Positions 14,927-52,626 of a stretch of DNA of 64,000 nt are shown here, one piece after another. This DNA is from Oscillospiraceae bacterium (lineage in GTDB: Bacteria; Bacillota; Clostridia; Oscillospirales; CAG-272). The stretch covers positions 871 to 64,870 of the forward strand of contig SVTW01000003.1 of assembly GCA_015063585.1 (NCBI GenBank). The letters run 5' to 3'. How positions within the stretch are numbered: position 1 is the stretch's first letter; each line of letters starts with the position of its first letter. The notes beneath the pieces are model-generated. The model saw nothing but the letters and a program-made list of their open reading frames with translations, did no database searches and had not been told where the DNA came from. The position numbers and the translations under genes were made by a program.

Positions 14927-16178
14927 GGGGACGCGGGGACGCGGGGACGCGGTTTATGCGGGGTCTTTTTGAAAAAAGACCCCTGCACCCCAAAAACTTT
15001 CCCGAACCAATTTCTATTGTGTGCTGGAGTGTCACATAGCTAAAGGCACAGGTACTACCGATTGCCGTCAGGCGCCGCCAAGACCCTGCCGGCACTCGCG
15101 GAGGACGCAAACACCCCCATCGGGAAAAGTTTTGGTCAAGCTTTTTCAAAAGCTTGCGAGGTCAAGGGCGAGTAGCCCTTGGCGCGCTCCGCAGAGCGCG
15201 AAACTCCCCTGATCGGCGTTTCTTTTTGATAGATTTTTCTTTGCGCCTCCTTCTTGCAAAGAAAAATCGGCTGTGGAGTGCCGAGAGCAATACGGGAGAC
15301 TAGTTTTTTGTCAGAAAACTTCTTGAAAGAAGTTTTCCGACACCTTTCAAGAACTTTCCCGAACGATTTTTATAGTGTGGTGGGGTGTGCATCGGCTCAG
15401 GACTTAGGTATTCCCAATTGCCGTCAGGCACCGCCAAGACCCTGCCGGCACTACCGATACGAAACCAGTTCTTTATTCGAGTCATTCTGAGCCGCGTAAG
15501 CGTGCGAAGAATCTGGTAACTTTTCCGAAAAAGGCAAAGCCTTTAAAAGAATGTTTCAAGATCCTTCGCGGCTACCGCCTCGCTCAGGATGACCCAGAAA
15601 AGGGGTTGTATTCAGAGTTATAAACAACCCCTGCCGGCACTACCGATAAAGAAAAAATTACATTTTTCGAGTCATCCTGAGCGAAGGGGCGAAGCCCCGA
15701 GTCGAAGTTTTGCGTAGGTGAGGCATGCCGAACGGAGCAAAACCAACGAAAACAACCATGGGTTGTTTGAGGCAGGGATCTACTTAAAATCGCCATTGGC
15801 TTGCCGTATGAGAGTTGCTTTTTTGAAAAAGGCAAAGCCTTTAAAAGAATGTTTCAAGATTCTTCGCACGCTTACGCCCGACAACGCTTTGCGTGTCGCT
15901 AAAGTGCTTTGCACTTTTCTGCTCAAGAATGACCCGAAAGGGAATTTTCGCAAACATAAACCCATCGGTGCTCGCGAAAAAGCAAATTTGTCCACAGCCT
16001 CCCTCCGGGAGGGAGGTGGATTTTGCGTAGCAAAAGCCGGAAGGAGCCGGCGATGGCTGTGACTTACAATTCCCAAAAACGCGAACGACGTGAATCATAC
16101 ACAAACTTCACCGGCACTCGCGGAGGACGCGGGGGACGCGATTTTCGTCAGAAAACGTCTTGAAAGAAGTTTTCTGAC
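14927..16178 (+). repeat. Mosaic array R1 (B-C J D-A-C J E-L J M-E J F J A; 5 junctions)
   Basis: Junction cores (CGG) at 15090, 15446, 15635, 15966 and 16112; every module recurs in other intergenic regions. Confidence 0.92.
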
Positions 16179-16198
16179 AAAAAACCTGGCGAAAGGTA

Positions 16199-16227
16199 TT
16201 GAAATTACAAAAAGAATCTGTTATAAT
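16199..16227 (+). promoter_or_regulatory. Sigma-A promoter of hisS operon
   Basis: TTGAAA-17-TATAAT with extended TG, immediately after array R1. Confidence 0.6.
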
Positions 16228-16263
16228 AAAGAAGAATATAGATTTTTCCAAGAGGTATTGGCA

Positions 16264-17568
16264 ATGAGCGAGAAGCTATCAACACAGCCCTACAAAGGCA
16301 CAAGAGATTTTTACCCGCGCGAGATGCGCATGCGCAATTGGTTTTTTGGTGTGATCCGCCACGTTTTAGAGCGCTCGGCGTTTGAGGAATACAACGGCCC
16401 CATGCTTGAGTCGCTCGCTCTTTACGCCGCAAAAAGCGGGGAGGAGCTGGCAAATGAGCAAACCTATAACTTTACCGACAGAGGCGACCGCCGCATGGCG
16501 ATCCGCCCCGAAATGACCCCCACCGTGGCACGCATGGTGGCGGGCAAGATGGGCGAGCTCAATTTCCCGCTCAAGTGGTTCTCGATCCCGAACATGTACC
16601 GTTGCGAGCGTCCCCAACGCGGCCGCTTGCGCGAGTTCTGGCAGATCAATGTTGACATTTTCGGCTGCGATGGCTTTGAGGCGGACCTTGAGGTCATTTC
16701 CAGCGCGATCGCCCTTCTGCGCGCGTTCGGCGCGGACGAGAGCATGTTCACCGTGCGCATCAACAACCGCCGCTTCTTCAACGACGTGATCGCCGCCATT
16801 GCAGGAACCGATCCCGAGGGCAGCCGCAAGGTCTCCAAGGTCATTGACCGCAAGGGCAAGATCCCGCGCGAGGAATATGAAAAAGAACTCCGTGAGCTCG
16901 GTCTCTCGGACGGGCAGATCGCCAAGATCGACGCGCTCTACACCATGGACGTGTCCGATGCCATCGCCCTCTGCCCCGATTCGGTGGGCGCGGGAGAGCT
17001 CCGTCAGCTCTTTGACGCACTTGACCGCACGGGTCTGCGCAAGTATTGCGTCTTTGATTTCGGCATCATTCGCGGTCTGGATTACTACACGGGTACCGTG
17101 TTTGAGGTCTTTGACAACGCGCCCGAGAACAACCGCGCCATGTTCGGCGGCGGCAGATACGACAACCTCGTTGGCCTTTTCGTCAAGAACGCAAAGGTTT
17201 CGGGCGTTGGATACGGCATGGGAGACGTCACGCTGGAGCACTTCCTCGAAACGCACAAGCTCATGCCCGCCTCCTTTGACGAATCGGTCAAGGTGCTCGT
17301 CACACGCTTTGAAGACGTCCCCTACGACCGCTACCTCGCGCTGGTGGATACCCTCCGCGACGCCGACATCACCGCATCGGTCTACCTCGGCACGAAAAAG
17401 TTCGGCAAGCAGATCGACTTTGCCGTAAAGGACGGCTATTCGCACGTGCTGATCATGGGCGGCGACGAAGCGGCACGCGGCGTGGTACGCGTGAAGGATC
17501 TCAACACACGCGAGGAATGCGAGACCACTCCCGACGGCGTGATCGCGCTTTTGAAAGACAAACAATAA
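16264..17568 (+). CDS. hisS: Histidine--tRNA ligase
   Basis: KGTRDFYP, RPEMTP, RCERPQRGRLREFWQ, RGLDYYTG and GGGRYDNL; start set at the ATG after GAGGT. Confidence 0.96.
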   Translation: MSEKLSTQPYKGTRDFYPREMRMRNWFFGVIRHVLERSAFEEYNGPMLESLALYAAKSGEELANEQTYNFTDRGDRRMAIRPEMTPTVARMVAGKMGELNFPLKWFSIPNMYRCERPQRGRLREFWQINVDIFGCDGFEADLEVISSAIALLRAFGADESMFTVRINNRRFFNDVIAAIAGTDPEGSRKVSKVIDRKGKIPREEYEKELRELGLSDGQIAKIDALYTMDVSDAIALCPDSVGAGELRQLFDALDRTGLRKYCVFDFGIIRGLDYYTGTVFEVFDNAPENNRAMFGGGRYDNLVGLFVKNAKVSGVGYGMGDVTLEHFLETHKLMPASFDESVKVLVTRFEDVPYDRYLALVDTLRDADITASVYLGTKKFGKQIDFAVKDGYSHVLIMGGDEAARGVVRVKDLNTREECETTPDGVIALLKDKQ

Positions 17569-22415: not shown

Positions 22416-22432
22416 AACTTGATCTAAAACAC

Positions 22433-22987
22433 GGGGACGCGGTTTTTGCGAGGGCGCGGTTTGCGGGGTCTTTTTGAAAAAAGACCCCTGCACCCCAAAA
22501 ACTTTCCCGAACCAATTTTTATGGTGTGATGGGGTGTCCATCGTCTCAGGACATAGATATTGCCAATTGCCGTCAGGCGCCACCAAGACCCTGCCGGCAC
22601 TACCGATAAAGAAAGAATAACCCTTGTCTTGTAGGGACCGGCGTCCTCGACGGTCCAAAGAAGGAATGAATGACACCACGGTGTGGTGTCAGAACGCGAG
22701 CGTGACCGAGCCGCAGTGAGAACTCGACGGTCCAAATGCAATAATATTAAACCCCTGCCGGCACTACCGATAAAGCGAGATTTTCCACAGCCTCCCTCCG
22801 GGAGGGAGGTGGGTTTTGCGTAGCAAAAGCCGGAAGGAGCCGGCGATGGCTATGCCTTACAATTCCCAAAAACGATACTGACGTGAATCATACACAAACT
22901 CCATCGGCACTCGCGGAGGACGCGGGGGTACGTTTTTTGCGGGGAGGCAATCTTCGTCAGAAAACTTCTTTCAAGAACTTTTCTGAC
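22433..22987 (+). repeat. Mosaic array R2 (B-C J G J F J A)
   Basis: Junction cores at 22595, 22759 and 22905; GTAGGGACCGGCGTCCTCGACGGTCC and CCTCCCTCCGGGAGGGAGG hairpins. Confidence 0.92.
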
Positions 22988-23018
22988 AAAAAATAAAAAA
23001 GGAGAAACCAACGAAAAG

Positions 23019-25452: not shown

Positions 25453-25458
25453 AATAAA

Positions 25459-26322
25459 GAGGCTGCGTCATTGGCGCAGCCTCTGCTCAAAAAAGCCGAC
25501 GGTAGGCTTTTTTGTAGCGCGGAATTTGCGGTTTTCGACTGCAAAGCCGTCGAAAATTGCGGTGTTTAGCCGCAAAGCGAAAACGTCGGGGGTGAGTACC
25601 AAATGCATTTTGGCATTTGACTCACCCCCTTTATCGTACCCCCGCGTCCTCCGCGAGTGCCGATAAAGTTTGTGTATGATTCACGTCGTTCCCGTTTTTG
25701 GGAATTGTAAGGCATAGCCATCGCCGGCTCCTTCCGGCTTTTGCTACGCAAAACCCACCTCCCTCCCGGAGGGAGGCTATGGGAAAACTCGCTTTTCCGC
25801 GAGCGCCGGCAGGGTCTTGGCGGCACCTGACGGCAATCGGTAGTACCTAAGTCCTGAGACGATGGATACCCCATCACACTATAAAAATCGTTCGGGAAAG
25901 TTCTTGAAAGGTGTCGGAAAACTTCTTTCAAGAAGTTTTCTGACAAAAAACGCGTCCCGTGTTGCTCTCGGAACTCCACAGCCGATTTTTCTTTGCAGGA
26001 AGGAGGCGCAAAGAAAAATCTATCAAAAAGAAACGCCGATAAGGGAGTTTCGCGCTGTGCGGAGCGCGCCAAGGGCTACTCGCCCTTGACCTCGCAAGCT
26101 TTTGAAAAAGCTTGACCAAAACTTTTCCGCAAGAGCTCTCGGTTTTTTCGCGAGTGCCGGCAGGGTCTTGGCGGTGCCTGACGGCAATCGGTAGCACCTA
26201 AGTCCTGAGACGATGGATACCCCATCACACTATAAAAATCGTTCGGGAAAGTTCTTGAAAGGTGTCGGAAAACTTCTTTCAAGAAGTTTTCTGACAAAAA
26301 CCGCGTCCTCGCGTCTCCGCAT
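25459..26322 (-). repeat. Mosaic array R3 (A-C J D-A-C J F J H)
   Basis: Reverse-orientation junction cores at 25660, 25806 and 26157. Confidence 0.92.
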
Positions 26323-26338
26323 CATGCGGTTTTAGCGG

Positions 26339-26367
26339 TTGACTTTTACGCGGGATTCTGTTATAAT
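26339..26367 (+). promoter_or_regulatory. Sigma-A promoter of FtsK-like gene
   Basis: TTGACT-17-TATAAT with extended TG; GAGGAGG RBS. Confidence 0.65.
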
Positions 26368-26402
26368 GAAACGGAAGAATCCAAGAGAGGAGGCATTTTA
26401 AA

Positions 26403-27524: not shown

Positions 27525-27552
27525 AAACATAAAAACGCAGGGCGAGGTTCAT

Positions 27553-28133
27553 GGGGGTGAGTCAAATGCAAAAATGCATTTGGTACTCACCCCCTCTCAT
27601 TTTGCTCTCGGCACTCCACAGCCGATTTTTCTTTGCAAGAAGGAGGCGCAAAGAAAAATCTATCAAAAAGAAACGCCGATCAGGGAGTTTCGCGCTCTGC
27701 GGAGCGCGCCAAGGGCTACTCGCCCTTGACCTCGCAAGCTTTTGAAAAAGCTTGACCAAAACTTTTCCGAATGAGCTTTCGGTTTTTCCGCGAGTGCCGG
27801 CAGGGGTTGTTTATAACTCTGAATACATACCTTCTTGGGTCATCCTGAGCGGGCGGCAGCCGCGAAGGATCTTGAAACATTTTTTCGGAGTTTTTGCCTT
27901 TTTCGGAAAAGCTACCAGATTCTTCGCACGCTTGCGCGGCTCAGAATGACCCCGATAAAGAAAACGGTTTCCTATCGGTAGTGCCGGCAGGGTCTTGGTG
28001 GCGCCTGACGGCAATTGGCAATACCTAAGTCCTGAGCCGACGCGCACTCCACCACACTATAAAAATCGTTCGGGAAAGTTTTTGGGGTGCAGGGGTCTTT
28101 TTTCAAAAAGACCCCGCAAATCGCGTCTCCGCA
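27553..28133 (-). repeat. Mosaic array R4 (B-C J E-L J D, ending in an H hairpin)
   Basis: Reverse junction cores at 27797 and 27984. Confidence 0.92.
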
Positions 28134-28161
28134 TAAAAAACGTCAAAATTTGGTCATACTC

Positions 28162-28190
28162 TTGACACATTGGGCTGTTAGCATTATAAT
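28162..28190 (+). promoter_or_regulatory. Sigma-A promoter of ABC operon
   Basis: TTGACA-17-TATAAT (perfect consensus). Confidence 0.75.
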
Positions 28191-28239
28191 ATTATAGATA
28201 GATAAAAACATTTTGCGAAAAGAAAGAGAGGCACAAAAT

Positions 28240-31693: not shown

Positions 31694-31699
31694 TCTGCA

Positions 31700-32391
31700 G
31701 GACGCGCGGGGACGCGGGGACGCGGTTTATGCGGGGGCGCGATTAATGCGGGGGCTTTTTGAAAAAAGACCCCTGCACCCCAAAAACTTCCCCGAACGAA
31801 TTTTTATTGTGTGATGGAATGTTTATCGTCTCAAGGCTAAGGTATTCCCAATTGCCGTCAGGCGCCGCCAAGACCCTGCCGGCACTCGCGGAAGACGCGG
31901 GGATGCGGCTTGCGGGGGACTTTTGCAAAAGTCCCCCTGCACCCCCAAAAACTTTCCGGACTATTTTTATAGTGTGATGGGGTGCGCGTCGGCTCAGGAC
32001 TTAGGTATTGCCAATTGCCGTCAGGCGCCACCAAGACCCTGCCGGCACTCGCGGAAAAGAAAGAACAGCCCATGTCTTGTAGGGACCGGCGTAGCGAAGC
32101 GACGTGAGCGGAATGAATGACACCACGGTGTGGTGTCAGAACGCGAGCGTGACCGAGCCGCAGTGAGAACTCGACGGTCCAAGTGCGATAAGATTAAACC
32201 CTGCCGGCACTGTCGAGAAAGCAAATGTTTCCACAGCCTCCCTCCGGGAGGGAGGTGGGTTTTGCGTAGCAAAAGCCGGAAGGAGCCGGCGATGGCTATG
32301 CCTTGTAATTCCCAAAAACAGGAACGACATGACTCATACGCATGCTCTTTCCGTCACGACTCCGTCGTGCCACCCCCTCGCGGAGGGAGCT
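31700..32391 (+). repeat. Mosaic array R5 (B-C J K-C J G J F)
   Basis: Junctions at about 31880, 32043 and 32205; lies between convergent genes. Confidence 0.92.
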
Positions 32392-32432
32392 GGTTTATGC
32401 AAGATTTTTACACCCTTTGTGTTTTCATCCGA

Positions 32433-33119: not shown

Positions 33120-33132
33120 GTTCTTTCCTTTT

Positions 33133-33525
33133 TTCGGGAATTGCAAGGCTTATCCTTCGCCGGCTCCTTCCGGCTTTTGCTGCGCAAAACCCACCTCCCT
33201 CCCGGAGGGAGGCTGTGAGATAATTCGCTTTCTCGGTAATGCCCGATGGGTTTATGTTATCGAAAATCCCCTTCTTGGGTCATTCTGAGCCGCGCAAGCG
33301 TGTGAAGAATCTGGTTACTTTTCTGAAAAAGGCTAAGCCTTTAAAAGAATGTTTCAAGATCCTTCGCGGCTAACGCCCCGCTCAGGATGACCCACAAGGG
33401 GGCGAAAAACGCATACACGTGTGTTTTTCTTTATCGGCAGTGCCGGCAGGGTCTTGGCTAGCCTCGACGGCAATTGGCAATACCTGATCACTTGGACCGT
33501 CGCGTTCTCACTGCGGTTCGGTCAC
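33133..33525 (-). repeat. Mosaic array R6 (G fragment, C', J, E pair, J, partial F)
   Basis: Junction-like sites at about 33230-33255 and 33430-33456; the G fragment overlaps the gyrA stop. Confidence 0.88.
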
Positions 33526-36659: not shown

Positions 36660-37508
36660 TCAAGCCGCGGGAGCGCTTTTCGACTCATATCCCGTGAGGA
36701 TCATCACCCATTGAAGCGCCGAAAAATCAACTGCGGGGCGCACGGTTGCCACCAAAGCGCGGCTGAATTCGTCCACCTCGACCGAAATGACCTCGCCGAG
36801 ATAAAGATCGGCAGGATAGACGCTCCCGATCCCGCTGGAATACACACGATCCCCCACCTGCACGTCGGCATTTGCCTCCACGTAGGTAAGCTTGCAAAGA
36901 CCCTCCCGCGAGAGCGAATAGTCGCCGCTGACAATGCCCGTGCTGCCGGTTCGCGGCAGATATGCGCCCACCGAGCTGTTGGGATCGATCACCGTGGTGA
37001 CAGAGCACCAATTGATGCCGACCTCGGTAACGTAGCCGACCACACCGGAAGCCGAAATGACGGGCATGTTGACCGCAATGCCGTGAATTTGACCGCGGTT
37101 GAGGGTAAAAGCGGTGGACGTACTGTCGGCAGAGAAGCCGATCACCATCGCGTCGCACATCACAAAAGAGGGGTGTGCGGCTTTGATGTCGAGATATTCG
37201 CGCAGACGCTCGTTCTCGGCTTCGAGAATCTCGCCGCGCTCCAGCTCCTCGCGGAGGGATTCCAATTCGTCTCGCAGGGCTTCATTTTCCTTTGTCAGCG
37301 CGTCGATTCCCTGAAAATACCGTCCAATGCCCGTAAAGCCGTTTGTCACAACCGAGGCGCACCAACGGAAGGGAGCGGTCAGGGTTCCAACTATATTTTT
37401 CGCAAGTCCGCCGTAGCCCATGAGAGAAAACGTGGTTGGAACGGCGCAAAGCACCACAGCCACGCAAAGGCAGATGATAAAAAATTTATTTTGGAATAAT
37501 TTTATCAT
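36660..37508 (-). CDS. mreC: Rod shape-determining protein MreC
   Basis: N-terminal TM, coiled coil ENERLREYL, LNRG..HGI..NMPV...GVVG, SSG.G.VYP and PAVDF. Confidence 0.92.
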   Translation of the reverse strand: MIKLFQNKFFIICLCVAVVLCAVPTTFSLMGYGGLAKNIVGTLTAPFRWCASVVTNGFTGIGRYFQGIDALTKENEALRDELESLREELERGEILEAENERLREYLDIKAAHPSFVMCDAMVIGFSADSTSTAFTLNRGQIHGIAVNMPVISASGVVGYVTEVGINWCSVTTVIDPNSSVGAYLPRTGSTGIVSGDYSLSREGLCKLTYVEANADVQVGDRVYSSGIGSVYPADLYLGEVISVEVDEFSRALVATVRPAVDFSALQWVMILTGYESKSAPAA

Positions 37509-37604
37509 AGTCTTTCTCTTTTCTGCAGATTGGTTTTGACGGTTTGCGGATTTTTTGGAATGGGGTTGAAAAAGTTCAGGGGTTGAGGGTTGAAAAAGTG
37601 CGAG

Positions 37605-38150
37605 GCAGAGCGACGCCAAGCATGACGGAAAGAGCATGCGTATGAGTCTCGTCGTTTCCGTTTTTGGGAATTGCAAGGCTTAGCCATCGCCGGCTCCTTC
37701 CGGCTTTTGCTACGCAAAACCCACCTCCCTCCCGGAGGGAGGCTATGATGAATCTCGCTTTTTCGCGAGTGCCGATGGGGGTGGCAGTGCTTAACATAAT
37801 CGCATTTGGACCGTCGAGTTCTCACTGCGGTTCGGTCACGCTCGCGTTCTTCCTTCTTTGGACCGTCGAGTTCTCACTGCGGCTCGGTCACGCTCGCGTT
37901 CTGACACCACACCGTGGTGTCATTCATTCCGCTCACGCCGCTTCGCTACGCCGGTCCCTACAAGACATGGGTTATTTTTTCTTTATCGGTAGTGCCGGCA
38001 GGGTCTTGGCGGCGCCTGACGGCAATTGGGAATACCTAAGTCCTGAGACGACAGACACTCCATCACACAATAGAAATTGGTTCGGGGAAGTTCTTGAAAG
38101 GTGTCGGAAAACTTCTTTCAAGAAGTTTTCTGACAAAAAAATCGTCTCCC
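37605..38150 (-). repeat. Mosaic array R7 (A-C J G with internal duplication J F)
   Basis: Junctions at about 37760-37784 and 37982-38007; ~45-bp duplication at 37807-37851 / 37858-37902. Confidence 0.9.
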
Positions 38151-38173
38151 TGCAAAAACCGCTCTTGTTATTT

Positions 38174-40213
<2,040 letters not shown>

Positions 40214-40299
40214 TCAATCCCGCATTTTTTATGTGGATTTTTAAATTTTTTTCGATTGATTTTTTGGAAAACTTCTTTATGGGGTGCTCTAAATCGCGT

Positions 40300-41058
40300 G
40301 AGCCTGTGAAGGGTCTTGAAACATTCTTTTAAAGGCTTTGCCTTTTTCAAAAAAGCAACTCTCATACGGCAAGCCAATGGCGATTTAAAGTAGATCCCTG
40401 CCTCAAACAACCCATGGTTGTTTTCGTTGGTTTTGCTCCGTTCGGCATGCCTCACCTACGCAAAACTTCGACTCGGGGCTTCGCCCCTTCGCTCAGGATG
40501 ACTCGAAAAATGTATTTTTTCTTTATCGGTAGTGCCGGCAGGGTCTTGGCGGTGCCTGCTGGCAAACGGCAGTACCTAAGTCCTGAGCCGACGCGCACTC
40601 CATCACACTATCAAAATCATTCGGGGAAGTTCTTGAAAGGTGTCGGAAAACTTCTTTCAAGAAGTTTTCTGACGAAAAAACGCATCTCCCGTGTTGCTCT
40701 CGGCACTCCACAGTCGATTTTTCTTTGCAAGAAGGAGGCGCAAAGAAAAATCTATCAAAAAGAAACGCCGATAGAAGGATTTCGCGCTCTGCGGAGCGCG
40801 CCAAGGGCTACTCGCCCTTGACCTCGCAAGCTTTTGAAAAAGCTTGACCAAAACTTTTCCGACAGAGCTTTCGGTTTTTTCCGCGAGTGCCGGCAGGGTC
40901 TTGGCGGCGCCTGACGGCAATTGGGAATACCTAAGTCCTGAGCCGACGCGCACCCCATCACACTATAAAAATCGTTCGGGAAAGTTCTTGAAAGGTGTCG
41001 GAAAACTTCTTTCAAGAAGTTTTCTGACGAAAACCGCGCCCCCGCGTTCCCCGCAAAA
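40300..41058 (-). repeat. Mosaic array R8 (A-C J D-A-C J M)
   Basis: Reverse junction cores at 40535 and 40890. Confidence 0.92.
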
Positions 41059-41079
41059 CCTGCTTTTTTTAAACTACCT

Positions 41080-41352: not shown

Positions 41353-41357
41353 GGCGA

Positions 41358-41978: not shown

Positions 41979-41994
41979 AGTCCTCTTTTTTTCT

Positions 41995-42642
41995 TTTTTG
42001 GGAATTATAAGGCTCAGCCATCGCCGGCTCTTTCATGGAAGGAGGCTGTGGGAAAATTTGCTTTATCGGCAGTGCCGGCAGGGTCTTGGCTAGCCTCGAC
42101 GGCAATTGGTAATATCTAAGCCCTGAGCCGACGCGCACTCCATCACACAATAAAAATTATTCGGGAAAGTTCTTGAAAGGTGTCGGAAAACTTCTTTCAA
42201 GAAGTTTTCTGACGAAAAAACGCATCTCCCGTGTTGCTCTCGGCACTCCAAAGCCGATTTTTCTTTGCAAGAAGGAGGCGCAAAGAAAAATCTATCAAAA
42301 AGAAACGCCGATCAGGGAATTTCGCGCTCTGCGGAGCGCGCCAAGGGCTACTCGCCCTTGACCTCGCAAGCTTTTGAAAAAGCTTGACCAAAACTTTTCC
42401 GAAAGGGACTCTCGCTTTTTCGCGAGTGCCGGCAGGGTCTTGGCGGCGCCTGACGGCAATCGGCAGTACCTAAGCCCTGAGCTGACGCGCACTCCATCAC
42501 ACTATCAAAATCGTTCGGGAAAGTTCTTGAAAGGTGTCGGAAAACTTCTTTCAAGAAGTTTTCTGACGAAAACCGCGCCCCCGCATTAATCGCGTCCCCG
42601 CGTCAAACGTGTCGGAAAACTTCTTTCAAGAAGTTTTCTGAC
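41995..42642 (-). repeat. Mosaic array R9 (A, A-C J D-A-C' J truncated F)
   Basis: Reverse junction cores at 42075 and 42429; extra A palindrome at about 42611-42642. Confidence 0.92.
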
Positions 42643-42652
42643 AAAAAATATT

Positions 42653-43753: not shown

Positions 43754-43844
43754 TTGCGGACTCCTTTCTGTTTCGGTTAACCAACGGGAAATATTTTTGA
43801 TTGGGATACTTTTATTTTTTAATTTTAAAAGTTTTTTCAAATGT

Positions 43845-44426
43845 AAAGGCTTTGCTTTTTTTCAAAAAAGCAACTCTCATACGGCAAGCCAATGGCGATT
43901 TTAAGTAGATCCCTGCCTCAAACAACCCATAGTTGTTTTCGTTGGTTTTGCTCCGTTCGGCATGCCTCACCTACGCAAAACTTCGACTCGGGGCTTCGCC
44001 CCCTCGCTCAGGATGACTCGAAAAATGTAATTTTTTCTTTATCGGCAGTGCCGGCAGGGGTTGTTTATAACTCTGAATACAACCCCTTTTCTGGGTCATC
44101 CTGATGCGTGTAAAAGCGCAAGCGCTTTGGCGAAGGATCTTGAAACATTCTTTTAAAGGCTTTGCCTTTTTTAGAAAAGCTACTAGATTCTTCGCACGCT
44201 TGCGCGGCTCAGAATGACCCCGATAAAGAAAACGGTTTTGTATCGGCAGTGCCGGCAGGGTCTTGGTGGCGCCTGACGGCAATTGGCAATACCTGAGCCC
44301 TGAGACGATGGACACCCCATCACACCATAAAAATTGGTTCGGGAAAGTTCTTGAAAGGTGTCGGAAAACTTCTTTCAAGAAGTTTTCTGACAAAAACCGC
44401 GTCCCCCGCGTCCCCGCGGACGCGCG
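43845..44426 (-). repeat. Mosaic array R10 (A-C J E-L J M)
   Basis: Reverse junction cores at 44051 and 44252; sits where yaaA is normally found. Confidence 0.92.
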
Positions 44427-44430
44427 TTTT

Positions 44431-45582: not shown

Positions 45583-45654
45583 GTGTGGAATCTCCTTATA
45601 TCAAAATTGAAGGTCCCTTCCGCTCTCTCGCTTCCGCGAAGCGGTAGAAAGAAG

Positions 45655-46115: not shown

Positions 46116-46129
46116 ACCCGTTTTTTTCG

Positions 46130-47497: not shown

Positions 47498-47683
47498 CGG
47501 CTTGACTCCTTTCTTTTGCTTCTTCCTGACTTTTATTATCTATAAATTCTTAAATATTAAATTACGCGCATGCGTTTATAATATATATTAATATTATAAC
47601 ATATAATTACCTATATTACAATGATAATATTATAATTTAAAAAAAGTTTACAATTTTTTTCTGAAAAGGCGAAAAATATCCTA

Positions 47684-47711
47684 TTGACAGAATGAAAAAA
47701 AGGGGTATAAT
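47684..47711 (+). promoter_or_regulatory. Sigma-A promoter of copA
   Basis: TTGACA-16-TATAAT after a very AT-rich spacer. Confidence 0.65.
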
Positions 47712-47756
47712 GAAAGTTGGTTCGTTATGACTAACTCCCGAAAAAAGGAAAAAGGA

Positions 47757-50399
47757 ATGAAAAGACTACATTTTACATTACAAGGAATGAGCTGTGCGGC
47801 ATGTGTGGCACATGTGGAGCGCGCGGTCAGAAGCGTTGTGGGAGAGGATACCCCCTTTACGGTGTCGCTCCTGACCAACTCGCTCACGGTTCTGCCAAAT
47901 GAGGAGCTTTCGCAGGAGGAAGCCGATGCGCTTACCGAGCGTCTCGCGGCGGCAATACGCGCGGCGGGATATACGCTTTTAACCGAGGCTCCGACCGATG
48001 AGGGGCAGAATCGCGAATCCCGCGCGCGGCTGATCCGTTTGATCCTCTCGGCACTCTTTACGCTCGGCGTGATGTATCTCTCCATGGGCGGCATGATTGG
48101 GCTTCCGATCCCCTCCTTCCTCACGGGAGATGCGGGCGGACTTTTCATGGCACTCGCGCAATTGATCCTGACGCTGCCCGTAATCGTTTTGAATTTCAAA
48201 TTTTTCAAAAACGGATTTTCCTCCCTTCTGCACCGCACACCCAACATGGATTCGCTGATCGCGGTGGGATCGGGAGCCTCCTTGCTCTACGGTATTTTTG
48301 CGATTGTAATGATCGCACGTGCGGCGGGAAATGCCGAAATCATTCACACGTGGGTGCATGATCTCTATTTTGAGTCGGCGGCAATGATCCTCACGCTCGT
48401 CTCGCTCGGAAAGCTGCTGGAATCGCGCGCAAAGGACAAAGCCTCCGACGCGGTGCGCTCTCTTGCCCGTCTCTCTCCCAAATTCGCAACCCTTTTGCGG
48501 GACGGAAAAGAATGTTCGGTTCCGATCTCCGAGATCCGCGTTGGCGACCTGCTTCTGATCCGCGCGGGGGAGCTTATCGCGGTGGACGGTGAGGTGGTTT
48601 CGGGTACGGGATCGGCGGACGAATCGGCTCTCACGGGTGAGAGCATGCCTGTGGAAAAAGAGGTGGGGGCGCAGGTCCGCGCCGCCTGCGTGATGCTCAC
48701 GGGTGCCGTTACCGTGCGTGCCACGGGTGTGGGTGAGGACAGTTCCCTTGCCCGTATCATTCGCCTGCTGGAGGACGCCGCAGCATCCAAAGCCCCCATC
48801 GCGCGCATTGCCGACCGCGTGAGCGCCGTATTTGTTCCCTGCGTGATGGCAATTTCGGCTCTTACGCTGGTCGTTTGGCTGCTCCTGACGCAAAATGCCG
48901 AGCATGCCCTGCGCTCGGCGATCTCGGTTTTGGTTATTTCCTGCCCCTGTGCGCTCGGACTTGCGACACCGACTGCGATCACGGTGGGGATCGGACGCGC
49001 GGCACGAAGCGGAATTCTCTTTCGAAATGCCGAGTCGCTTGAAAAGCTCTGCTCGGTCAAAACCGTTGTGTTTGATAAAACGGGTACGCTGACCGAGGGC
49101 AAGCCTGCCGTGACCGCGCTGATCTCCTATCGGGAACCGGCACATCGCGTGCTCTCTTGCGCCGCCGCTGTGGAACGTCTTTCCTCGCATCCGCTGGCAC
49201 CTGCCGTGAGCGCGGCGGCAGGATCGATCCTGTGCGAGCGAGGCGCCGATTGTCAGCCCCTTGCGGTAAGCGATTTTGAAGCGCTTGTAGGCTATGGAGC
49301 GGTTGGAACGGTGGAAGGTGTGCGCTGTTACGTTGGCAAGCCCGACGCGGCTTTTCTCGCCTCTGTGCGCGCCTCCGTGCCGACCGATCCCGCGCTTTTG
49401 CGTGAGGGTATGTGCGAAAAAGACGACACGTCCTCGCTCTTTTCGGATTTTGCGGCTTTGGAATCGCTCGGAAAGACGGTTGTAATTGTAAAATTTGATA
49501 CCGCGGTGGTTGGTCTGATTGCCATTGCCGACCAGATCCGAACCGACTCACGCGAGGCGATCGCGCTTCTGCATGAGCAGGATATCAAGGCGCTGATGCT
49601 GACGGGCGATAACGAACGCACTGCCGAGGCAATTGCGGCAGACGCCGCTCTCGACGGCTTTTACGCGGGTCTTTTGCCCGAGGACAAGGAACGTATGGTG
49701 TATCAGCTCTCCAAGCAGGCTCCCTGCGCGATGGTGGGAGACGGAATCAACGATTCTCCTGCCCTTGTGCGTGCCGACGTTGGCATTGCGATCGGAACGG
49801 GTACCGAAACCGCCATCGATTCCGCCGACGTGGTGCTCTCGCGCCCCTCTCTGCTCGGCGTGGCTGAGGCTTTCGGCATCAGCCGCGTCACGATCCGCGT
49901 CATTCGCCAAAATTTGTTCTGGGCGCTTTTCTACAACGCCGTTTGTATTCCCGTTGCGGCGGGTCTGTTTTATCCTCTTCTTGGCTGGCAGCTCAGCCCG
50001 ATGCTGGCATCGGCGGCAATGAGCTGTTCCTCGGTGTTTGTCGTCCTCAACGCTCTGCGCCTGAAAACGATGAATCTGAATACAAAAAAACACGCACGGG
50101 TTGAAAATTCCCGTGCGTCAAGCATAAAAAAGAATGAAAATCATGAAAATATGGATCATAAAGGAGAACAAGAAGACATGCTGTTTCATACCGAAAAGAC
50201 CTACGTCCTCCACGTGGAGGGAATGATGTGCCCGCGTTGCGTGGCGCACGTGAAAACCGCTTTGGAAGGCGTCAAGGGCGTCAAGCGCGCCGACGTTGAC
50301 CTCGATTCCAAAACCGCTACCGTGGTTGCCACCCTAAAGGACGACTCCGCCCTGTGTAAGGCGGTTGTCGACGCGGGCTATGAGGTTGTAAAGGAATAA
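47757..50399 (+). CDS. copA: Cu(I)-translocating P1B-type ATPase with N- and C-terminal HMA domains
   Basis: GMSCAAC, TGES, CPCALGLATP, DKTGT, HP, GDGIND, FYN, AAMSCSS and C-terminal GMMCPRC. Confidence 0.92.
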   Translation: MKRLHFTLQGMSCAACVAHVERAVRSVVGEDTPFTVSLLTNSLTVLPNEELSQEEADALTERLAAAIRAAGYTLLTEAPTDEGQNRESRARLIRLILSALFTLGVMYLSMGGMIGLPIPSFLTGDAGGLFMALAQLILTLPVIVLNFKFFKNGFSSLLHRTPNMDSLIAVGSGASLLYGIFAIVMIARAAGNAEIIHTWVHDLYFESAAMILTLVSLGKLLESRAKDKASDAVRSLARLSPKFATLLRDGKECSVPISEIRVGDLLLIRAGELIAVDGEVVSGTGSADESALTGESMPVEKEVGAQVRAACVMLTGAVTVRATGVGEDSSLARIIRLLEDAAASKAPIARIADRVSAVFVPCVMAISALTLVVWLLLTQNAEHALRSAISVLVISCPCALGLATPTAITVGIGRAARSGILFRNAESLEKLCSVKTVVFDKTGTLTEGKPAVTALISYREPAHRVLSCAAAVERLSSHPLAPAVSAAAGSILCERGADCQPLAVSDFEALVGYGAVGTVEGVRCYVGKPDAAFLASVRASVPTDPALLREGMCEKDDTSSLFSDFAALESLGKTVVIVKFDTAVVGLIAIADQIRTDSREAIALLHEQDIKALMLTGDNERTAEAIAADAALDGFYAGLLPEDKERMVYQLSKQAPCAMVGDGINDSPALVRADVGIAIGTGTETAIDSADVVLSRPSLLGVAEAFGISRVTIRVIRQNLFWALFYNAVCIPVAAGLFYPLLGWQLSPMLASAAMSCSSVFVVLNALRLKTMNLNTKKHARVENSRASSIKKNENHENMDHKGEQEDMLFHTEKTYVLHVEGMMCPRCVAHVKTALEGVKGVKRADVDLDSKTATVVATLKDDSALCKAVVDAGYEVVKE

Positions 50400-50429
50400 T
50401 AGTTGGTTTTTTTCTGACATTTTGTTATA

Positions 50430-50836
50430 CGGGGGGACTTTGCAAAAGTCCCCCCGTATTCATTCGCTCTCATGTTGCTCTCGGCTCTCCACAGCCGATT
50501 TTTCTTTGCAGGAAGGAGGCGCAAAGAAAAATCTATCAAAAAGAAACGCCGATCAGGGAGTTTCGCGCTCTGCGGAGCGCGCCAATGGCTACTCGCCCTT
50601 GACCTCGCAAGCTTTTGAAAAAGCTTGACCAAAACTTTTCCAAAGGAGCTCTCGCTTTTTTTCGCGAGTGCCGGCAGGGTCTTGGTGGCGCCTGACGGCA
50701 ATCGGGAGCACCTAAGTCCTGAGCCGGTGGACACCCCATCACACCATAAAAATTGGTTCGGGAAAGTTCTTGAAAGGTGTCGGAAAACTTCTTTCAAGAA
50801 GTTTTCTGACGAAACCCGCGTCCCCACGTTTCCGCG
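50430..50836 (-). repeat. Mosaic array R11 (A-C J D, ending in K palindrome)
   Basis: Junction at about 50657-50683; lies between convergent genes. Confidence 0.92.
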
Positions 50837-50853
50837 TTTTTGCATATTTCTTT

Positions 50854-51804
50854 TTATTCCTCGAAGCAATGATAGGTTTCGAGGATATGTTTACCGATGT
50901 CGTAGAGAAGATCTACGGCTTTTTGTTTTAGGTGAAGCGGCGGATCGAGGAGGGAGGTAACGGTTTGATCGCCGTGCGTCCAGGGCTTGCGGTGGTAGGG
51001 AATATTGCGCGAATGCAGGAGCGTGTAAGAAGCTTCAAACGTAAAGAAGCCGTCGTAATTCACATCAAGCAGGGCTTGCATGATGGCATCGAAATTGATG
51101 ATCCCCGCAAACGGCCAGCTGTGGTGGTGGACGTCACCGAAATTATCCGAAATATGCAGACCCTTGAGTTTATCGCCGAGGTCTTTGATATGTTGGTACT
51201 GTCCCTCAAGCGGACGTCTTGTTACAATGTTGCTGTGCGCCGTATCCCAGCAGGCGGCGAGCAGAGGGTGGTTGACGTGATCCAAAAAACGCCGCATTTC
51301 GGCACCCGTTGTGAATTTTGTATTCGTGTTGTCCCAATTTTCGGTCATAACCGTGATGTTATATTTCTCCATGAGGTCAAAGAATTCGCGATAAAATTTT
51401 GTATTGTAGCGGTAAAAATCTGCCTCGGTAAAGGAGTCGTGCGGGCAGGCATGGACCACAATGCGGTCAATGCCGAGCAGGTGACAGATCTCAATGGATC
51501 GGCGGATCGCGCGGATATTGGTGCGATAGGTCTCGTCGTTTGGATTTTCAAACACCTGCAAGCAGGGATCGTGCAGACACGGCGCATGCGAAACGACAAA
51601 ACGCACGCCTGCCTGTGCCGCGGCGTTTCCCCATTCGTCTGCCAATCGACGCCAACCGTTGTCGTCCTCGGAGAAAAATTCGGGAATGCTACCCGATTGT
51701 TCCAAATTGATGTATCGAAATTTTGTACCCGCAAAATGCTTGATGCATTCGGTCATCGATTCTGCGTACAGAGACAAATCGCCCGTGGAGGTTACCAGCT
51801 TCAT
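50854..51804 (-). CDS. Sugar phosphate isomerase/epimerase (AP endonuclease-2 TIM barrel)
   Basis: HAP, VVHA, TEN, WDTAH, LHISDN, H..PF.G.I and TFE motifs. Confidence 0.87.
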   Translation of the reverse strand: MKLVTSTGDLSLYAESMTECIKHFAGTKFRYINLEQSGSIPEFFSEDDNGWRRLADEWGNAAAQAGVRFVVSHAPCLHDPCLQVFENPNDETYRTNIRAIRRSIEICHLLGIDRIVVHACPHDSFTEADFYRYNTKFYREFFDLMEKYNITVMTENWDNTNTKFTTGAEMRRFLDHVNHPLLAACWDTAHSNIVTRRPLEGQYQHIKDLGDKLKGLHISDNFGDVHHHSWPFAGIINFDAIMQALLDVNYDGFFTFEASYTLLHSRNIPYHRKPWTHGDQTVTSLLDPPLHLKQKAVDLLYDIGKHILETYHCFEE

Positions 51805-51827
51805 CTTTTTTCTCCTTTTTGACTTGT

Positions 51828-52626
51828 TTTGAGCCGCGCGAGCGTGCGAAGGATCTTGAAACATTCTTTTAAAGGCTTTGCCTTATTCAAAAAAGCAACT
51901 CTCATACGGCAAGCCAATGGCGATTTTAAGTAGATCCCTGCCTCAAACAACCTTTGGTTGTTTTCGTTGGTTTTGCTCCGTTCGGCATGCCTCACCTACG
52001 CAAAACTTCGACTCGGGGCTTCGCCCCTTCGCTCAGGATGACGCAGAAGGAAAATTACAAATACGCATACACGCGTGTTTTTCTTTATCGGTAGTGCCGG
52101 CAGGGTCTTGGAGGTGCCTGACGGCAATTGGCAATACCTGAGTCTTGAGCCGACGCGCACTCCATCACACTATAAAAATCGTTCGGGAAAGTTCTTGAAA
52201 GGTGTCGGAAAACTTCTTTCAAGAAGTTTTCTGACGAAAAACGCGTCTCCCGTGTTGCTTTCGGCATTCCACAGCCGATTTTTCTTTGCAGGAAGGAGGC
52301 GCAAAGAAAAATCTATCAAAAAGAAACGCCGATAAGGGAGTTTCGCGCTCTGCGGAGCGCGCCAAGGGCTACTCGCCCTTGACCTCGCAAGCTTTTGAAA
52401 AAGCTTGACCAAAACTTTTCCGAAAGGGGATCTCGCTTTTTCGCGAGTGCCGGCAGGGTCTTGGTGGCGCCTGACGGCAATTGGCAATATCTATGTCTTG
52501 AGCTGATAGACACCCCATCACACTATAAAAATTGGTTCGGGAAAGTTCTTGAAAGGTGTCGGAAAACTTCTTTCAAGAAGTTTTCTGACAAACCGCGTCC
52601 CCGCAAAACCCGCTCCCCCGCGTCCG
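51828..52626 (-). repeat. Mosaic array R12 (A-C J D-A-C J M-E)
   Basis: Reverse junction cores at 52097 and 52450. Confidence 0.92.

Follow-up and report, generated by a model that had tools for sequence, protein, structure and literature searches.

The twelve intergenic arrays of non-coding repeats in the window, the 64,000-nt stretch of DNA analyzed here, closely parallel the mosaic repeats of Neisseria and Escherichia coli, as judged by comparison of their organization, rather than representing a new cassette-swapping machine. The arrays are probably not a working cassette-exchange system. Our favored reading, which has about an even chance of being right, is that they form a mosaic resembling neisserial intergenic mosaic elements (NIMEs) and BIMEs, produced by lineage-specific accretion of non-autonomous structured repeats beside a resident D-A element downstream of genes.

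Arrays around the replication origin

The DNA is that of a gut bacterium, and the array-filled intergenic gaps surround the replication origin. The first-pass annotation had described 12 arrays of about 8 kb in total with junctions facing the same way within each array. This description was borne out: core sites fall in 12 gene-to-gene gaps, the re-drawn boundaries sum to about 8.6 kb, and cores are co-oriented in each of the 12. The arrays as assembled are as follows, with core-to-core distances in bp given in parentheses.

14915..16095, minus strand: array R1, between a 3121-aa LRR/subtilase gene and hisS; cores at 15084, 15440 and 15629; in core orientation X, core, E-L (189), core, D-A-C (356), core, D-A
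22416..23018, minus strand: array R2; cores at 22589 and 22753; X, core, G (164), core, D-A
25453..26402, plus strand: array R3; cores at 25803 (GCG variant) and 26154; X, core, D-A-C (351), core, D-A
27525..28212, plus strand: array R4; cores at 27794 and 27981; C-type X, core, E-L (187), core, D-A
31694..32420, minus strand: array R5; cores at 31874, 32037 and 32199; X, core, G (162), core, D-A' (163), core, D-A
33120..33507, plus strand: array R6; core at 33440
37507..38173, plus strand: array R7, downstream of gyrB; core at 37992; module M, degenerate core, G with two nested-element copies, then core, D-A
40199..41079, plus strand: array R8, between a conserved 90-aa ORF and gyrB; cores at 40532 and 40887; X, core, D-A-C (355), core, D-A
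41979..42652, plus strand: array R9, downstream of recF; cores at 42072 and 42426; M, core, D-A-C (354), core, D-A, A
43841..44430, plus strand: array R10, between dnaN and recF; cores at 44048 and 44249; X, core, E-L (201), core, D-A
50400..50853, plus strand: array R11; core at 50668; C-type X, core, D-A
51865..52636, plus strand: array R12; cores at 52094 and 52447; X, core, D-A-C (353), core, D-A

The arrays share the grammar X, (core-body-tail)n, core, D-A, in which every core of an array faces the same way. All 12 window arrays terminate in core, D and A; D is truncated in R6, where it leads into a fragment of a small nested element (family D16) that overlaps the gyrA stop codon. The hairpin A end lies nearest the gene, with D-A just downstream of the stop codon, in 10 of the 12, the exceptions being R3, whose D-A end points at the start of an FtsK-like gene, and R4. 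Genome-wide, where 56 dispersed arrays were found, the A end lies toward the 3' end of a gene in 33 of 44 arrays according to crude gene calls, and opposed neighboring cores less than 1500 bp apart form only two pairs.

The core and the units between cores

The 12-nt core, GTGCCGGCAGGG, was found with at most one mismatch at 23 window sites, all inside 15084-52458, whereas 100 shuffles averaged 0.32 sites and never gave more than 2. It is the commonest 12-mer of the genome, which contains 115 cores. Mean pairwise identity reaches 0.99 in the core but only 69-88% in the sequence directly around it; the values in mid-D and in the tail are 0.80 and 0.69, respectively. Module D starts with a 9-bp hairpin of which the core is the 5' arm. 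Array R8 provides reference copies of these features.

40532..40576, plus strand: core and partner, in which the 5' arm GCCGGCAGG pairs with CCTG(A/C)(C/T)GGC about 12 nt downstream
40532..40886, plus strand: reference D-A-C unit of 355 bp, comprising core, D hairpin, hairpin A (~40637-40679), linker, module C and tail
40711..40866, plus strand: module C, with four Watson-Crick hairpins (H1-H4)
~40714-40769, within module C: pyrimidine arm, purine arm and mirror purine tract of an intrastrand triplex motif

The partner arm is present after 71 of the 115 cores, and the core hairpin of the nearest species (G080) is doubly changed, compensated and still fully paired. With its preceding A, the core becomes a 13-mer, AGTGCCGGCAGGG, that has 112 copies here compared with none or one in each of 40 relatives; an 18-mer version yielded only single chance matches across the species collection. 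The tetranucleotide GTAG directly precedes 28 of 108 cores, with most cores carrying GCAG or CGAG instead.

Genome-wide, 59 co-oriented core-to-core units shorter than 700 bp clustered into classes of 21, 7, 6, 5, 4, 3 and 2 members plus 11 singletons; the units listed are non-coding repeats of 86-576 bp. The lengths initially assigned to D-A-C (351-356 bp; R1, R3, R8, R9 and R12), G (162-164 bp; R2 and both the 162- and 163-bp intervals of R5) and E-L (187-201 bp; R1, R4 and R10) all agree with the core-to-core distances given above. An F module of exactly 146 bp had also been proposed, but no such interval is present among the 59 units; a 147-nt family (D8) exists in R3, R6 and R7. Neighbors do change as claimed, with 15 left and 13 right flank classes at 108 fully flanked junctions; after the commonest left class comes D in 20 cases, G in 4, E in 3 and another sequence in 3.

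The notion of one recurring junction, however, stood only with regard to the constant, near-invariant core. Similarity breakpoints pile up to the same extent about 105 and 145 nt after the core, at either border of hairpin A, and small elements are nested within units. The 86-bp and 162-bp units differ by a 77-93-bp element in a hairpin loop; one copy has this element in tandem, and two others have it inverted. E-L bodies carry 14-bp terminal inverted repeats, and unit tails are of one of two 8-nt types. D alleles are block-wise and apparently reassorted. No two D-A-C units are identical (pairwise identity of 0.82-0.98), and there is therefore no sign of recent movement, a point against accretion.

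The first-pass annotation had likened the arrays to integron- or pdif-style cassette recombination. Such site-specific exchange is not supported: no integron integrase was found in the 86.5%-complete assembly, the 56 arrays are dispersed, sites lie around essential genes, and breakpoints also fall within units. Ten co-oriented arrays flank gyrA, gyrB, recF and dnaN, so that recombination between these direct sites would be expected to delete the genes. More generally, we consider it improbable that a dedicated site-specific recombinase, similar to that of integrons, pdif modules or NIMEs, acts in trans at the core to integrate and excise core-to-core units as circles. A near-invariant core amid variable flanks, the co-orientation of cores in arrays, and the occurrence of exactly one core per unit with combinatorial neighbors are all consistent with such an enzyme, and D-A is always the right-hand end, as expected if units enter one resident site. 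The same idea has been put forward for dRS3 in the account of NIME arrays in PMC1797815. The assembly also contains three tyrosine and two large serine recombinase genes. However, none of these reaches the integron, XerC or XerD cut-off, with the three tyrosine recombinases scoring 60-94 bits on the integron-integrase model (cut-off of 265) and falling below the XerC and XerD cut-offs as well. No array adjoins a recombinase gene, the nearest being ~3 kb away (contig C80). Activity at direct sites around gyrA, gyrB and dnaN would presumably be lethal, breakpoints are equally frequent at hairpin A edges and nested elements, and relatives possess the same modules without the core.

The earlier statement that the window encodes no recombinase or HUH nuclease is not quite accurate, given that a DDE_Tnp_1 transposase ORF (56845-58167) is located in the window outside the span of the arrays. 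A tyrosine recombinase gene lies 364 bp past the window end on the same contig, and neither gene is linked to the repeats. Searches of the 86.5%-complete assembly for Y1/HUH, IS110, TnpB and reverse transcriptase (PF01797, PF01548, PF07282 and PF00078) gave no matches. Y1 genes in the genus are IS200-like, and no core-like motif was found at them in three loci examined. No transposase or recombinase in the assembly could be tied to the repeats, an observation that also counts against accretion.

Module C and the formation of the arrays

Module C is ~147 nt long, and its copies in this genome share an identity of 0.967. Double changes affect 18 of 32 predicted pairs, and 70 copies yielded 2615 Watson-Crick cells compared with 12 G:T and 22 A:C. 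Three-way covariation of the pyrimidine, purine and mirror-purine tracts was apparent in 66 of 67 parsed copies. These compensatory changes and the three-way covariation support the view that the structure of module C is under selection. Within the same units D varies far more than C, a difference that counts against accretion in that in-place gene conversion or selection explains it better than inserted copies simply decaying. In addition, the triplex motif and the stems, which are strictly Watson-Crick, suggest that DNA-level structures, either single-stranded or cruciform/H-DNA, may be what is recognized or selected.

Of the 77 other genomes of the genus, 65 contain a match to module C (79-92% identity) and 54 contain matches to further pieces, including hairpin A. 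A model of C additionally has hits in 16 of 150 other genomes from the order. At five loci with flanks examined in relatives, C is solitary or in an inverted pair, and it occurs in both orientations relative to adjacent genes. The modules, judging from these matches in relatives, predate the arrays. No multi-unit array was found at the orthologous origin-region gaps of four relatives (G019, G010, G080 and G053): module matches were absent from these loci in G019 and G010, and four short matches each were present in G080 and G053. The dnaN-recF alignment gap corresponding to R10 is 15 bp in G019, and the R8 position in the nearest species is 89 bp. The one alignable orthologous array, that of R9 in G080, has the same left module M, tail and core, with a single D unit where the window holds D-A-C and D-A. 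Neither a target-site duplication nor a clean empty/filled pair at nucleotide resolution was obtained with these relatives, which are too diverged, and this counts against accretion.

A doubtful, though not far-fetched, alternative requires no mobility. The modules would serve the host, for instance as structures at mRNA 3' ends, as hairpins with a terminator or insulator role, or, as has been suggested for REP/BIME, as sites bound by gyrase or the nucleoid. The arrays would expand and be reshuffled solely by replication slippage, unequal crossing-over and gene conversion between dispersed copies, with a hot spot at the core hairpin. The gene-3'-end orientation of the A end, the uniformity of C with pairs kept across species, the apparent reassortment of D alleles, and tandem D-A runs in one relative (G011) favor this possibility, as does the association of E. 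coli intrastrand triplex repeats with local rearrangement described in the relevant part of PMC4666352. The orientation bias could indeed reflect host function (3'-end structure) rather than selfish spread, and it counts against accretion. Colonization of new loci would still be needed, however, with the orthologous gaps being empty in G019 and G010, and the 12-20 nt shared between units are a poor substrate for homologous exchange. In addition, a simple scan detected no excess of terminator-like sites (14, compared with 11.9 ± 3.4 in shuffles), and C adopts either orientation relative to adjacent genes in relatives.

The arrays lie in an assembly of 99 contigs in which 39 of the 115 cores are no more than 800 bp from the end of their contig, a core is present at 23 of the 198 contig ends, and Logan contigs of four runs end at array edges, with none bridging an array. 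Internal unit order and copy number thus rest on one short-read assembly. That the shuffled orders are in part artefacts of short-read metagenome assembly across near-identical modules (C copies are ~97% identical over 145 nt, and a relative's tandem array includes a run of N) is nevertheless very improbable. Gene order across all arrays is the same in four relatives, variable D and tail segments provide unique anchors for each unit, the same unit classes occur on many contigs, an independent-looking run (X2, ~1% different) breaks at the same edges, and comparable structures are present in assemblies of other species.

Accretion beside D-A would have proceeded as follows. The small-element families (D-A, C, E-L, G, M and a 64-93-bp nested element) are, on the evidence of the genomes compared, old residents of the genus, in part order-wide, and are normally single in intergenic DNA. 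In this species, D-A is typically found just 3' of the stop codon with hairpin A gene-proximal, and the short hairpin that opens D supplies the core as its 5' arm. Further elements would accrue directly 5' of the D hairpin, each bringing or regenerating one core, a process that would give rise to the observed grammar. These non-autonomous elements may insert with a strong preference for the core site and for hairpin loops of earlier copies, with the mobilizing enzyme, absent from or unrecognizable in the assembly, probably being supplied in trans. Local duplication and gene conversion between copies would then follow insertion.

Comparison with known repeat systems

As in integrons and pdif modules, discrete units lie between recurring sites in variable order. 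The units here, in contrast, are non-coding repeats in 56 dispersed arrays rather than on one platform with an integrase, and their co-oriented sites flank essential genes. The integron cassette core-site pattern was not matched by the sequence 3' of the core in three right-flank classes. The terminal inverted repeats of E-L, the insertion of the 64-93-bp element, in either orientation or as tandem copies, into the hairpin loops of other units, and lineage-specific copy numbers and loci are reminiscent of MITEs and nested repeats, whereas no autonomous partner, target-site duplication or recent identical copies were found here.

Module C resembles the BoxC/PIT/TMECO repeats in being a multi-copy intergenic repeat and in its block order of pyrimidine, loop, complementary purine, short loop and mirror purine, which corresponds to the "class II" topology as outlined in PMC4666352. 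According to the section of that paper on TMECO, a triplex formed in vitro and TMECO loci were more rearranged between strains; the motif in module C is instead supported by sequence covariation. Module C differs in its A/T richness, its triads being T·A·A apart from one or two C·G·G, whereas those repeats are G/C-rich; in its arms of 9-11 nt; in its first loop, which as parsed here comprises 9-10 nt (the triplex finder of PMC4666352 allows 1-6 nt, as described there) and a 5-nt GGCGC-type block pairing beyond the third block; and in the embedding of the motif in a 147-nt four-hairpin element.

REP/BIME sequences of enterobacteria and pseudomonads, which are mobilized by RAYT (Y1), are described in the portions of PMC2817692 and PMC3733652 concerned as high-copy, short, G+C-rich imperfect palindromes, typically with a 5' GTAG tag, that form mosaic intergenic clusters, often 3' of genes, with proposed roles at mRNA 3' ends or in gyrase or IHF binding. 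The arrays share the abundance of such palindromes, their mixing with other motifs, the mosaic clustering downstream of genes and, for part of the cores, the preceding GTAG. However, most cores follow GCAG or CGAG, cores are co-oriented in each array whereas REPs alternate in orientation as depicted in PMC2817692, the inter-core units are long (86-576 bp) and highly structured, and no Y1 gene was found in this assembly.

The first-pass annotation regarded the architecture as undescribed, but NIMEs, as presented in the corresponding part of PMC1797815, are closely similar. No match to the dRS3 sequence and no neisserial uptake sequences were found here, the host not being a Neisseria and its nearest clusters being Bacillota-like, and no phage or IS110-type site-targeting enzyme was identified. 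In the present arrays the constant part consists of a half-hairpin of 12 nt and a tail of 8 nt, whereas dRS3 is a 6-N8-6 inverted repeat, and the units here are conserved structured elements found alone in other species. NIMEs are arrays of ~50-150-bp RS units set apart by a constant 20-bp repeat, dRS3, for which the authors proposed a specific recombinase, and the likeness extends, as far as that description goes, to many families of non-coding units (19-214 bp), one short dyad-like constant repeat, variation in unit number per array between related genomes, and opportunistic insertion of other small repeats.

Arrays in the replication origin region

The window comes from a 2.24-Mb assembly (51.2% G+C, 99 contigs, 86.5% complete) and spans the replication origin region, with the cumulative GC skew reaching its minimum at about 45-46 kb. 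It also carries hisS and genes for a P-type ATPase and an ABC transporter, among others. The protein clusters nearest to DnaA are mostly from Bacillota, and the public runs that contain the locus are metagenomes from animal gut or faeces, with part of the interval 37400-44500 present in 20 runs. The genes to which we refer are as follows.

46130-47497, minus strand: dnaA
44431-45582, minus strand: dnaN
42653-43840, minus strand: recF
38174-40198, minus strand: gyrB
33508-36042, minus strand: gyrA
5548-14913, plus strand: LRR/subtilase protein of 3121 amino acids, immediately preceding array R1, that contains a subtilase domain plus 17 leucine-rich repeat stretches of the BspA type
56845-58167, minus strand: DDE_Tnp_1 transposase gene, the sole DDE gene found in the assembly, in a low-G+C stretch

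Read in the orientation of the core, the constant 12-nt junction word, all twelve intergenic arrays (R1-R12) begin with a left module that lacks the core, continue with up to two core-body-tail units, and end with the core followed by modules D and A; D is truncated in R6. The arrays bracket dnaA, dnaN, recF, gyrB, and gyrA, and 56 dispersed arrays were counted genome-wide. In 10 of the 12 window arrays, the neighbouring gene is transcribed towards the array and its stop codon directly adjoins the A end, the exceptions being R3 and R4, which flank an FtsK-like gene on either side. Genome-wide, with genes called only crudely by longest ORF, the A side lies towards the 3' end of a gene in 33 of the 44 arrays with a gene assigned there, and the core side shows no orientation bias by the same crude calls (23 versus 22). 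The order of stop codon, A, and D was also found in two relatives, G080 and G011.

The FtsK-like gene (26403-27524, plus strand) encodes an FtsK/SpoIIIE-domain protein of 373 amino acids (PF01580, E = 2e-32) and lies exactly between D-A and C modules. No orthologue is present in any of the other 77 genus genomes, where the sole matches are FtsK proteins of 1000-1200 amino acids with 36-37% identity. We considered this gene as a gene-carrying cassette; an array ending in D-A followed by one starting with C accounts for this layout with no need for a cassette.

Four public runs were compared with the window over 33000-52700. Their Logan contigs are short and none bridges any array, and the candidate joints in these runs have short sides (21-45 nt) that are compatible with other copies of the repeats. 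Misassembly can affect the order or number of units in an array, but not the phenomenon itself.

The junction core, units, and candidate enzymes

The core, GTGCCGGCAGGG, occurs with at most one mismatch at 23 sites in the window, against 0.32 expected, and all of these sites fall in the twelve gene-to-gene gaps. No other 12-mer is as common in the genome, where it has 113 exact copies (115 with one variant allowed). The cores of one array are co-oriented, with opposed neighbours less than 1500 bp apart providing two exceptions genome-wide. A second genome-wide repeat family, with approximately 90-109 copies among the commonest 12-mers, consists of palindrome-like words rich in A/T, around ...AAATGCA... 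and flanked by GGGGGTGAG.

Module D follows the core in 71 of 115 cases, and the core letters GCCGGCAGG pair with CCTGACGGC approximately 12 nt downstream in D, with one G·A mismatch. A solitary D-A element of G080 contains GCTGTCAGG...CCTGACAGC, a doubly changed and fully paired version of this hairpin, and a third version of the core is present in six tandem D-A units of G011. The pairing within D together with these two altered versions shows that module D begins with a short hairpin, of which the core is the 5' arm. Units that start with E-L, G, or the 223-bp body carry the half-hairpin only. The 8 nt that precede the core at 108 junctions are of two types, TATCGG(T/C)A (n = 45) and (T/C)(T/C)(T/C)CGCGA (n = 51), and the 15 left and 13 right flank classes of these junctions combine freely.

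Defining a unit as the interval between consecutive co-oriented cores less than 700 bp apart, we obtained 59 units of non-coding repeats genome-wide. They span 86-576 bp, with length clusters at 86, 158-164, 187-201, 209-212, 223-224, and 351-375 bp, and fall by sequence into classes of 21, 7, 6, 5, 4, 3, and 2 members and 11 singletons. The lengths assigned to D-A-C, G, and E-L in the first-pass annotation are reproduced in these core-to-core spacings; the length of 146 bp that it gave for module F corresponds to none of them. Its proposal of a single recurring junction is borne out to the extent that alignment ends pile up at cores, but equally large piles lie approximately 105 and 145 nt downstream. 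An all-against-all comparison of the twelve arrays identified these additional seams as the two edges of module A, a 15-bp hairpin. In R8, for example, 16 alignments start at array positions 438-444 and 20 end at 475-481, with the cores being located at 334 and 689. Hairpin A is also found on its own, with 15 copies in the region (family D4).

Nesting contributes further to unit structure. The 86-bp unit is converted to the 162-bp G unit by a 77-93-bp element within the loop of a small hairpin; one unit carries two copies of this element, and two others carry it in inverted orientation. Terminal inverted repeats of 14 bp bound the E-L body. The G+C-rich word CGCGTCCCC or its complement follows hairpin A in many units, and also occurs at 14927-14950, in one to three tandem copies, and its repeat number accounts for the D-A-C length classes of 351-356 versus 363-375 bp. 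The stop codon of gyrA (33508-33510) and approximately the last eight codons lie within 33491-33536, a segment 78% identical to the nested element (family D16), so the end of the GyrA tail seems to have been supplied by a repeat insertion.

Conservation is uneven within units. Mean pairwise identity among the 21 D-A-C units is 0.99 in the core, 0.88 in the rest of the D hairpin, 0.80 in mid-D, and 0.69 in the tail; for module C in the same units it is 0.967. This unevenness and the 3'-end orientation bias of the arrays both favour a serious rival to the accretion of non-autonomous repeats, namely a purely recombinational or host-function origin.

No match to Y1/HUH (PF01797), IS110 (PF01548), TnpB (PF07282), or reverse transcriptase (PF00078) families was found in the assembly itself, although absence from an assembly that is 86.5% complete is not proof of absence. 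Three tyrosine recombinase genes score 60.4, 94.0, and 68.6 bits on TIGR02249 (cut-off of 265) and are also below the XerC and XerD cut-offs, and two large serine recombinase genes are present. None of these recombinase genes, nor the DDE gene, adjoins or is linked to any array, and the inverted repeats of the DDE gene are unlike the module ends. Across the genus, Y1 matches occur in 21 of 77 genomes, 18 of them over the cut-off, and the three loci examined (L192, L193, and L194) are IS200-like, with their own unrelated hairpins and without a core-like motif. We rank a dedicated site-specific recombinase that exchanges cassettes at the core lower, because no such enzyme was seen in the 86.5%-complete assembly, because direct sites bracket essential genes, and because seams also occur elsewhere than at the core.

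The IS200-like elements L193 and L194, from G071 and G080 respectively, look nearly identical over the stretches compared in these two species, a likeness that may reflect recent horizontal transfer within the genus. The interval 56-64 kb is low in G+C (36-46%) and contains, in addition to the DDE_Tnp_1 gene, an ORF at 58658-59866 with a weak ISL3 zinc-ribbon match and a 1240-amino acid ORF without a family; a tyrosine recombinase gene (C3:65234-65710) lies just beyond the window end. This stretch has the appearance of an acquired island with no relation to the arrays.

Pairing and mirror symmetry in module C, and modules in relatives

The reference D-A-C unit folds, under a Watson-Crick model, to -132.1 kcal/mol (z = -5.0) on one strand and -130.3 kcal/mol (z = -4.1) on the other. 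RNAalifold applied to 29 copies of module C from 26 species gave 32 pairs in four hairpins (H1-H4), 18 of the pairs with both sides changed, and a one-sided (wobble) change in three cells only. Among 70 copies from relatives, the 40 proposed pairs comprise 2615 Watson-Crick cells, 12 G:T, 22 A:C, and 56 others, and the wobble asymmetry of 12 versus 22 cells favours neither strand. Near-absence of wobble pairs on either strand is not usual for an RNA constraint acting on one strand. The scarcity of wobble on both strands of C thus points to what would be a strand-symmetric, DNA-type constraint.

The 3' arm of H1 is mirrored by the purine tract that comes after H1, and this tract co-varies with both arms. 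The blocks could be parsed in 67 of 72 copies, with a perfect complement in 66 of the 67 and a perfect mirror (at least 9 nt) also in 66, across eight distinct purine patterns. Seventeen of 18 distinct block triples are consistent, compared with 6.4 on average and at most 14 for shuffles (0 of 5000 reach 17), and 69-70 of 70 copies retain a GGCG/CGCC stem that would close the two purine tracts. Given that Watson-Crick pairing cannot yield mirror symmetry, this feature is the signature of a putative intrastrand triplex, predicted to adopt a purine motif on this strand and a pyrimidine motif (U·A-U/T·A-T plus C·G-C) on the other. Three-way covariation of the triplex type was not found reported for bacterial repeats in the limited, partly accessible literature looked at.

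Searches for known elements gave little. Rfam at gathering thresholds yielded zero matches over the whole window and, with E values up to 5 over 40199-44430, four weak and irrelevant matches only; no tRNA or tmRNA was found in the window, and promoter and terminator counts over 37400-44500 were not above those for shuffles. The repeat sequence strings had no relevant literature match in a search whose range ended short of the supplementary per-genome triplex-motif tables of PMC4666352.

Hairpins A and H4 (for example, 40637-40679 and 40826-40845) and the conserved 3' end of C share the half-site-like word AAAACTT/AAGTTTT, and H4 of C is matched exactly by the centre of hairpin A in G011. This likeness suggests that A and H4 have a common origin or are bound by the same protein.

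The core with its preceding A, a 13-mer, has 112 copies here and zero or one per genome in 24 genomes of the genus and 16 of the order. An 18-mer core version gave only 44 single, unrelated chance matches across a species-representative collection. Another 18-mer gave 38 loci in a metagenome collection, with no second strain of the species among them and with module homologues only in L094 and L114, which align to the window in the manner of the G080 locus. The D-A-C unit has matches in 65 of the 77 other genus genomes, nearly all at unit positions 181-327 (module C) and with 79-92% identity; at the five loci examined with their flanks, C is intergenic, solitary or in an inverted pair, and in either orientation. 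Array R10 has matches in 54 of the 77 genomes, mostly to hairpin A, as well as to a piece of the long E-type body in approximately eight genomes and to a diverged D in G080, G010, and G011; copy numbers in relatives are minimum values. With a covariance model of C, matches were obtained in 16 of a sample of 150 other genomes from the order, representing at least nine other families and with up to 19 scored copies per genome. These distant copies keep only H2-H4 and flanking conserved single-stranded motifs, the H1/triplex part being replaced.

In four loci from other families of the order (L200, L206, L210, and L199) and one from the genus (L050), the H2-H4 part ends 20-45 nt upstream of a start codon, with L206 and L210 apparently preceding the same gene in two species, and the 3' part of the order-wide element contains TTGAC-like words. 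The element could have a leader- or promoter-proximal role at such sites.

Gene order from dnaA to gyrA is conserved in G080 (the nearest species, with 88% gyrB DNA identity), G053, G019, and G010. The origin loci of G019 and G010 contain zero module matches, and those of G080 and G053 contain four short matches each and no multi-unit array. The alignment gap between dnaN and recF is 15 bp in G019 versus 590 bp (R10) here, and that before gyrB is 89 bp in G080 versus 881 bp (R8) here. Downstream of recF, G080 shares left module M, the tail, and the core with the window and then has one D unit with a 19-bp loop insertion; in the window, M is followed by D-A-C, core, D-A, and an extra A, with the A region so diverged that the ends of the difference cannot be placed relative to G080. 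From these orthologous loci, the arrays formed in this lineage, by accretion onto older elements that stood singly.

Six tandem D-A-type units of approximately 176 bp, with their own core version, make up L077 (G011:C20:26400-27400), which also contains a run of 10 N, showing that D-A-type arrays break assemblies in other species too.

Interpretation and comparison with known systems

The arrays fit a mosaic of non-autonomous structured repeats that was accreted in this lineage. Accretion would have taken place next to resident D-A elements downstream of genes, with the half-hairpin core as a favoured seam. A more ambitious combined reading, in which the core is the recognition and strand-exchange site of a putative trans-acting, structure-directed enzyme and C is a selected intrastrand triple-helix element, strikes us as improbable. 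In this uncultured lineage of gut Bacillota, an enzyme of this kind would build arrays out of structured elements belonging to several families. The triplex of C might form in DNA and stall or guide replication and recombination, or, on the strand that is mRNA-sense in most arrays, C might instead form an ENE-like U·A-U triple helix serving as a cap for the 3' ends of transcripts.

How NIME and BIME arrays are built and what they do has been a question since the first genomes, and the locus bears on it as a second, unrelated mosaic system, in an uncultured animal-gut bacterium and with a clean grammar: a core-less left module (X), (core-body-tail)n, and core-D-A. Its building blocks are traceable across at least 77 species of the genus and partly across the order, they carry strong signals of selected structure, and the arrays surround the most conserved chromosomal genes, making orthologous comparison easy. 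If an enzyme or host function becomes attached to the core or to C, the system would be relevant to repeat-driven genome plasticity and to bacterial non-B DNA; if neither does, it is a well-characterised new example of a known phenomenon.

The integron- or pdif-style assembly put forward in the first-pass annotation does not agree with the dispersed arrays, the co-oriented cores, and the failure to find such a recombinase. An integron is expected to have an IntI-type recombinase adjoining its array, whereas here there is none, the three candidates in the 86.5%-complete assembly being far below the cut-off. Integrons also have a single platform of mostly gene cassettes ending in attC, in contrast to 56 dispersed arrays of non-coding units in which a junction hairpin is present only where D comes after the core. 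In pdif systems, 28-bp dif-like sites alternate around modules, whereas the array cores are co-oriented and the recombinases are below the XerC/XerD cut-offs; the likeness of the core to dif was judged against a consensus only.

REP/BIME elements with a RAYT differ in that a Y1 gene (PF01797) is typically flanked by its own REPs, whereas the present assembly has no match. REPs are short imperfect palindromes with a 5' GTAG or CGTC tag that alternate in orientation within a BIME, and here the comparison is divided: a palindrome is present, GTAG precedes 28 of 108 cores (the others having GCAG or CGAG), and the orientation of the cores does not alternate. It is likewise divided for MITEs, which combine terminal inverted repeats, a target-site duplication, and a related autonomous IS: terminal inverted repeats were seen for the E-L body, no target-site duplication was resolved, and the DDE gene of the window shows no matching inverted ends. 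Elements derived from IS200/IS605 would be expected to come with Y1, TnpB, or both and with matching subterminal hairpins, and PF01797 and PF07282 have zero matches in the assembly.

Module C shares its class II block order (pyrimidine, complementary purine, mirror purine) with the BoxC/PIT/TMECO repeat of Escherichia coli, which, according to the accessible part of PMC4666352, forms a triplex in vitro and has loci that are more rearranged between strains. The reverse strand of C resembles the ENE/MALAT1-type layout of two U-rich strands, a closing stem, and a downstream A-rich tract, but wobble pairs are nearly absent on both strands and there is no Rfam match. Elements of this type are listed for viruses, vertebrate lncRNAs, and eukaryotic transposons in the portion available of a 2020 review (PMC7583470), and the ENE-like reading, if true, would provide the first bacterial example among the classes listed there.

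Neisserial NIMEs, as described in PMC1797815, are similar in that arrays of diverse short non-coding units are separated by one constant short repeat and vary between related genomes. They differ in their repeat, the Neisseria dRS3 (ATTCCC-N8-GGGAAT). An actual neisserial identity was rejected, with zero dRS3 matches in the window and uptake-sequence variants occurring zero or one time in the genome. Among described architectures, the neisserial NIME comes closest, and BoxC/TMECO is a precedent for the triplex sub-motif.
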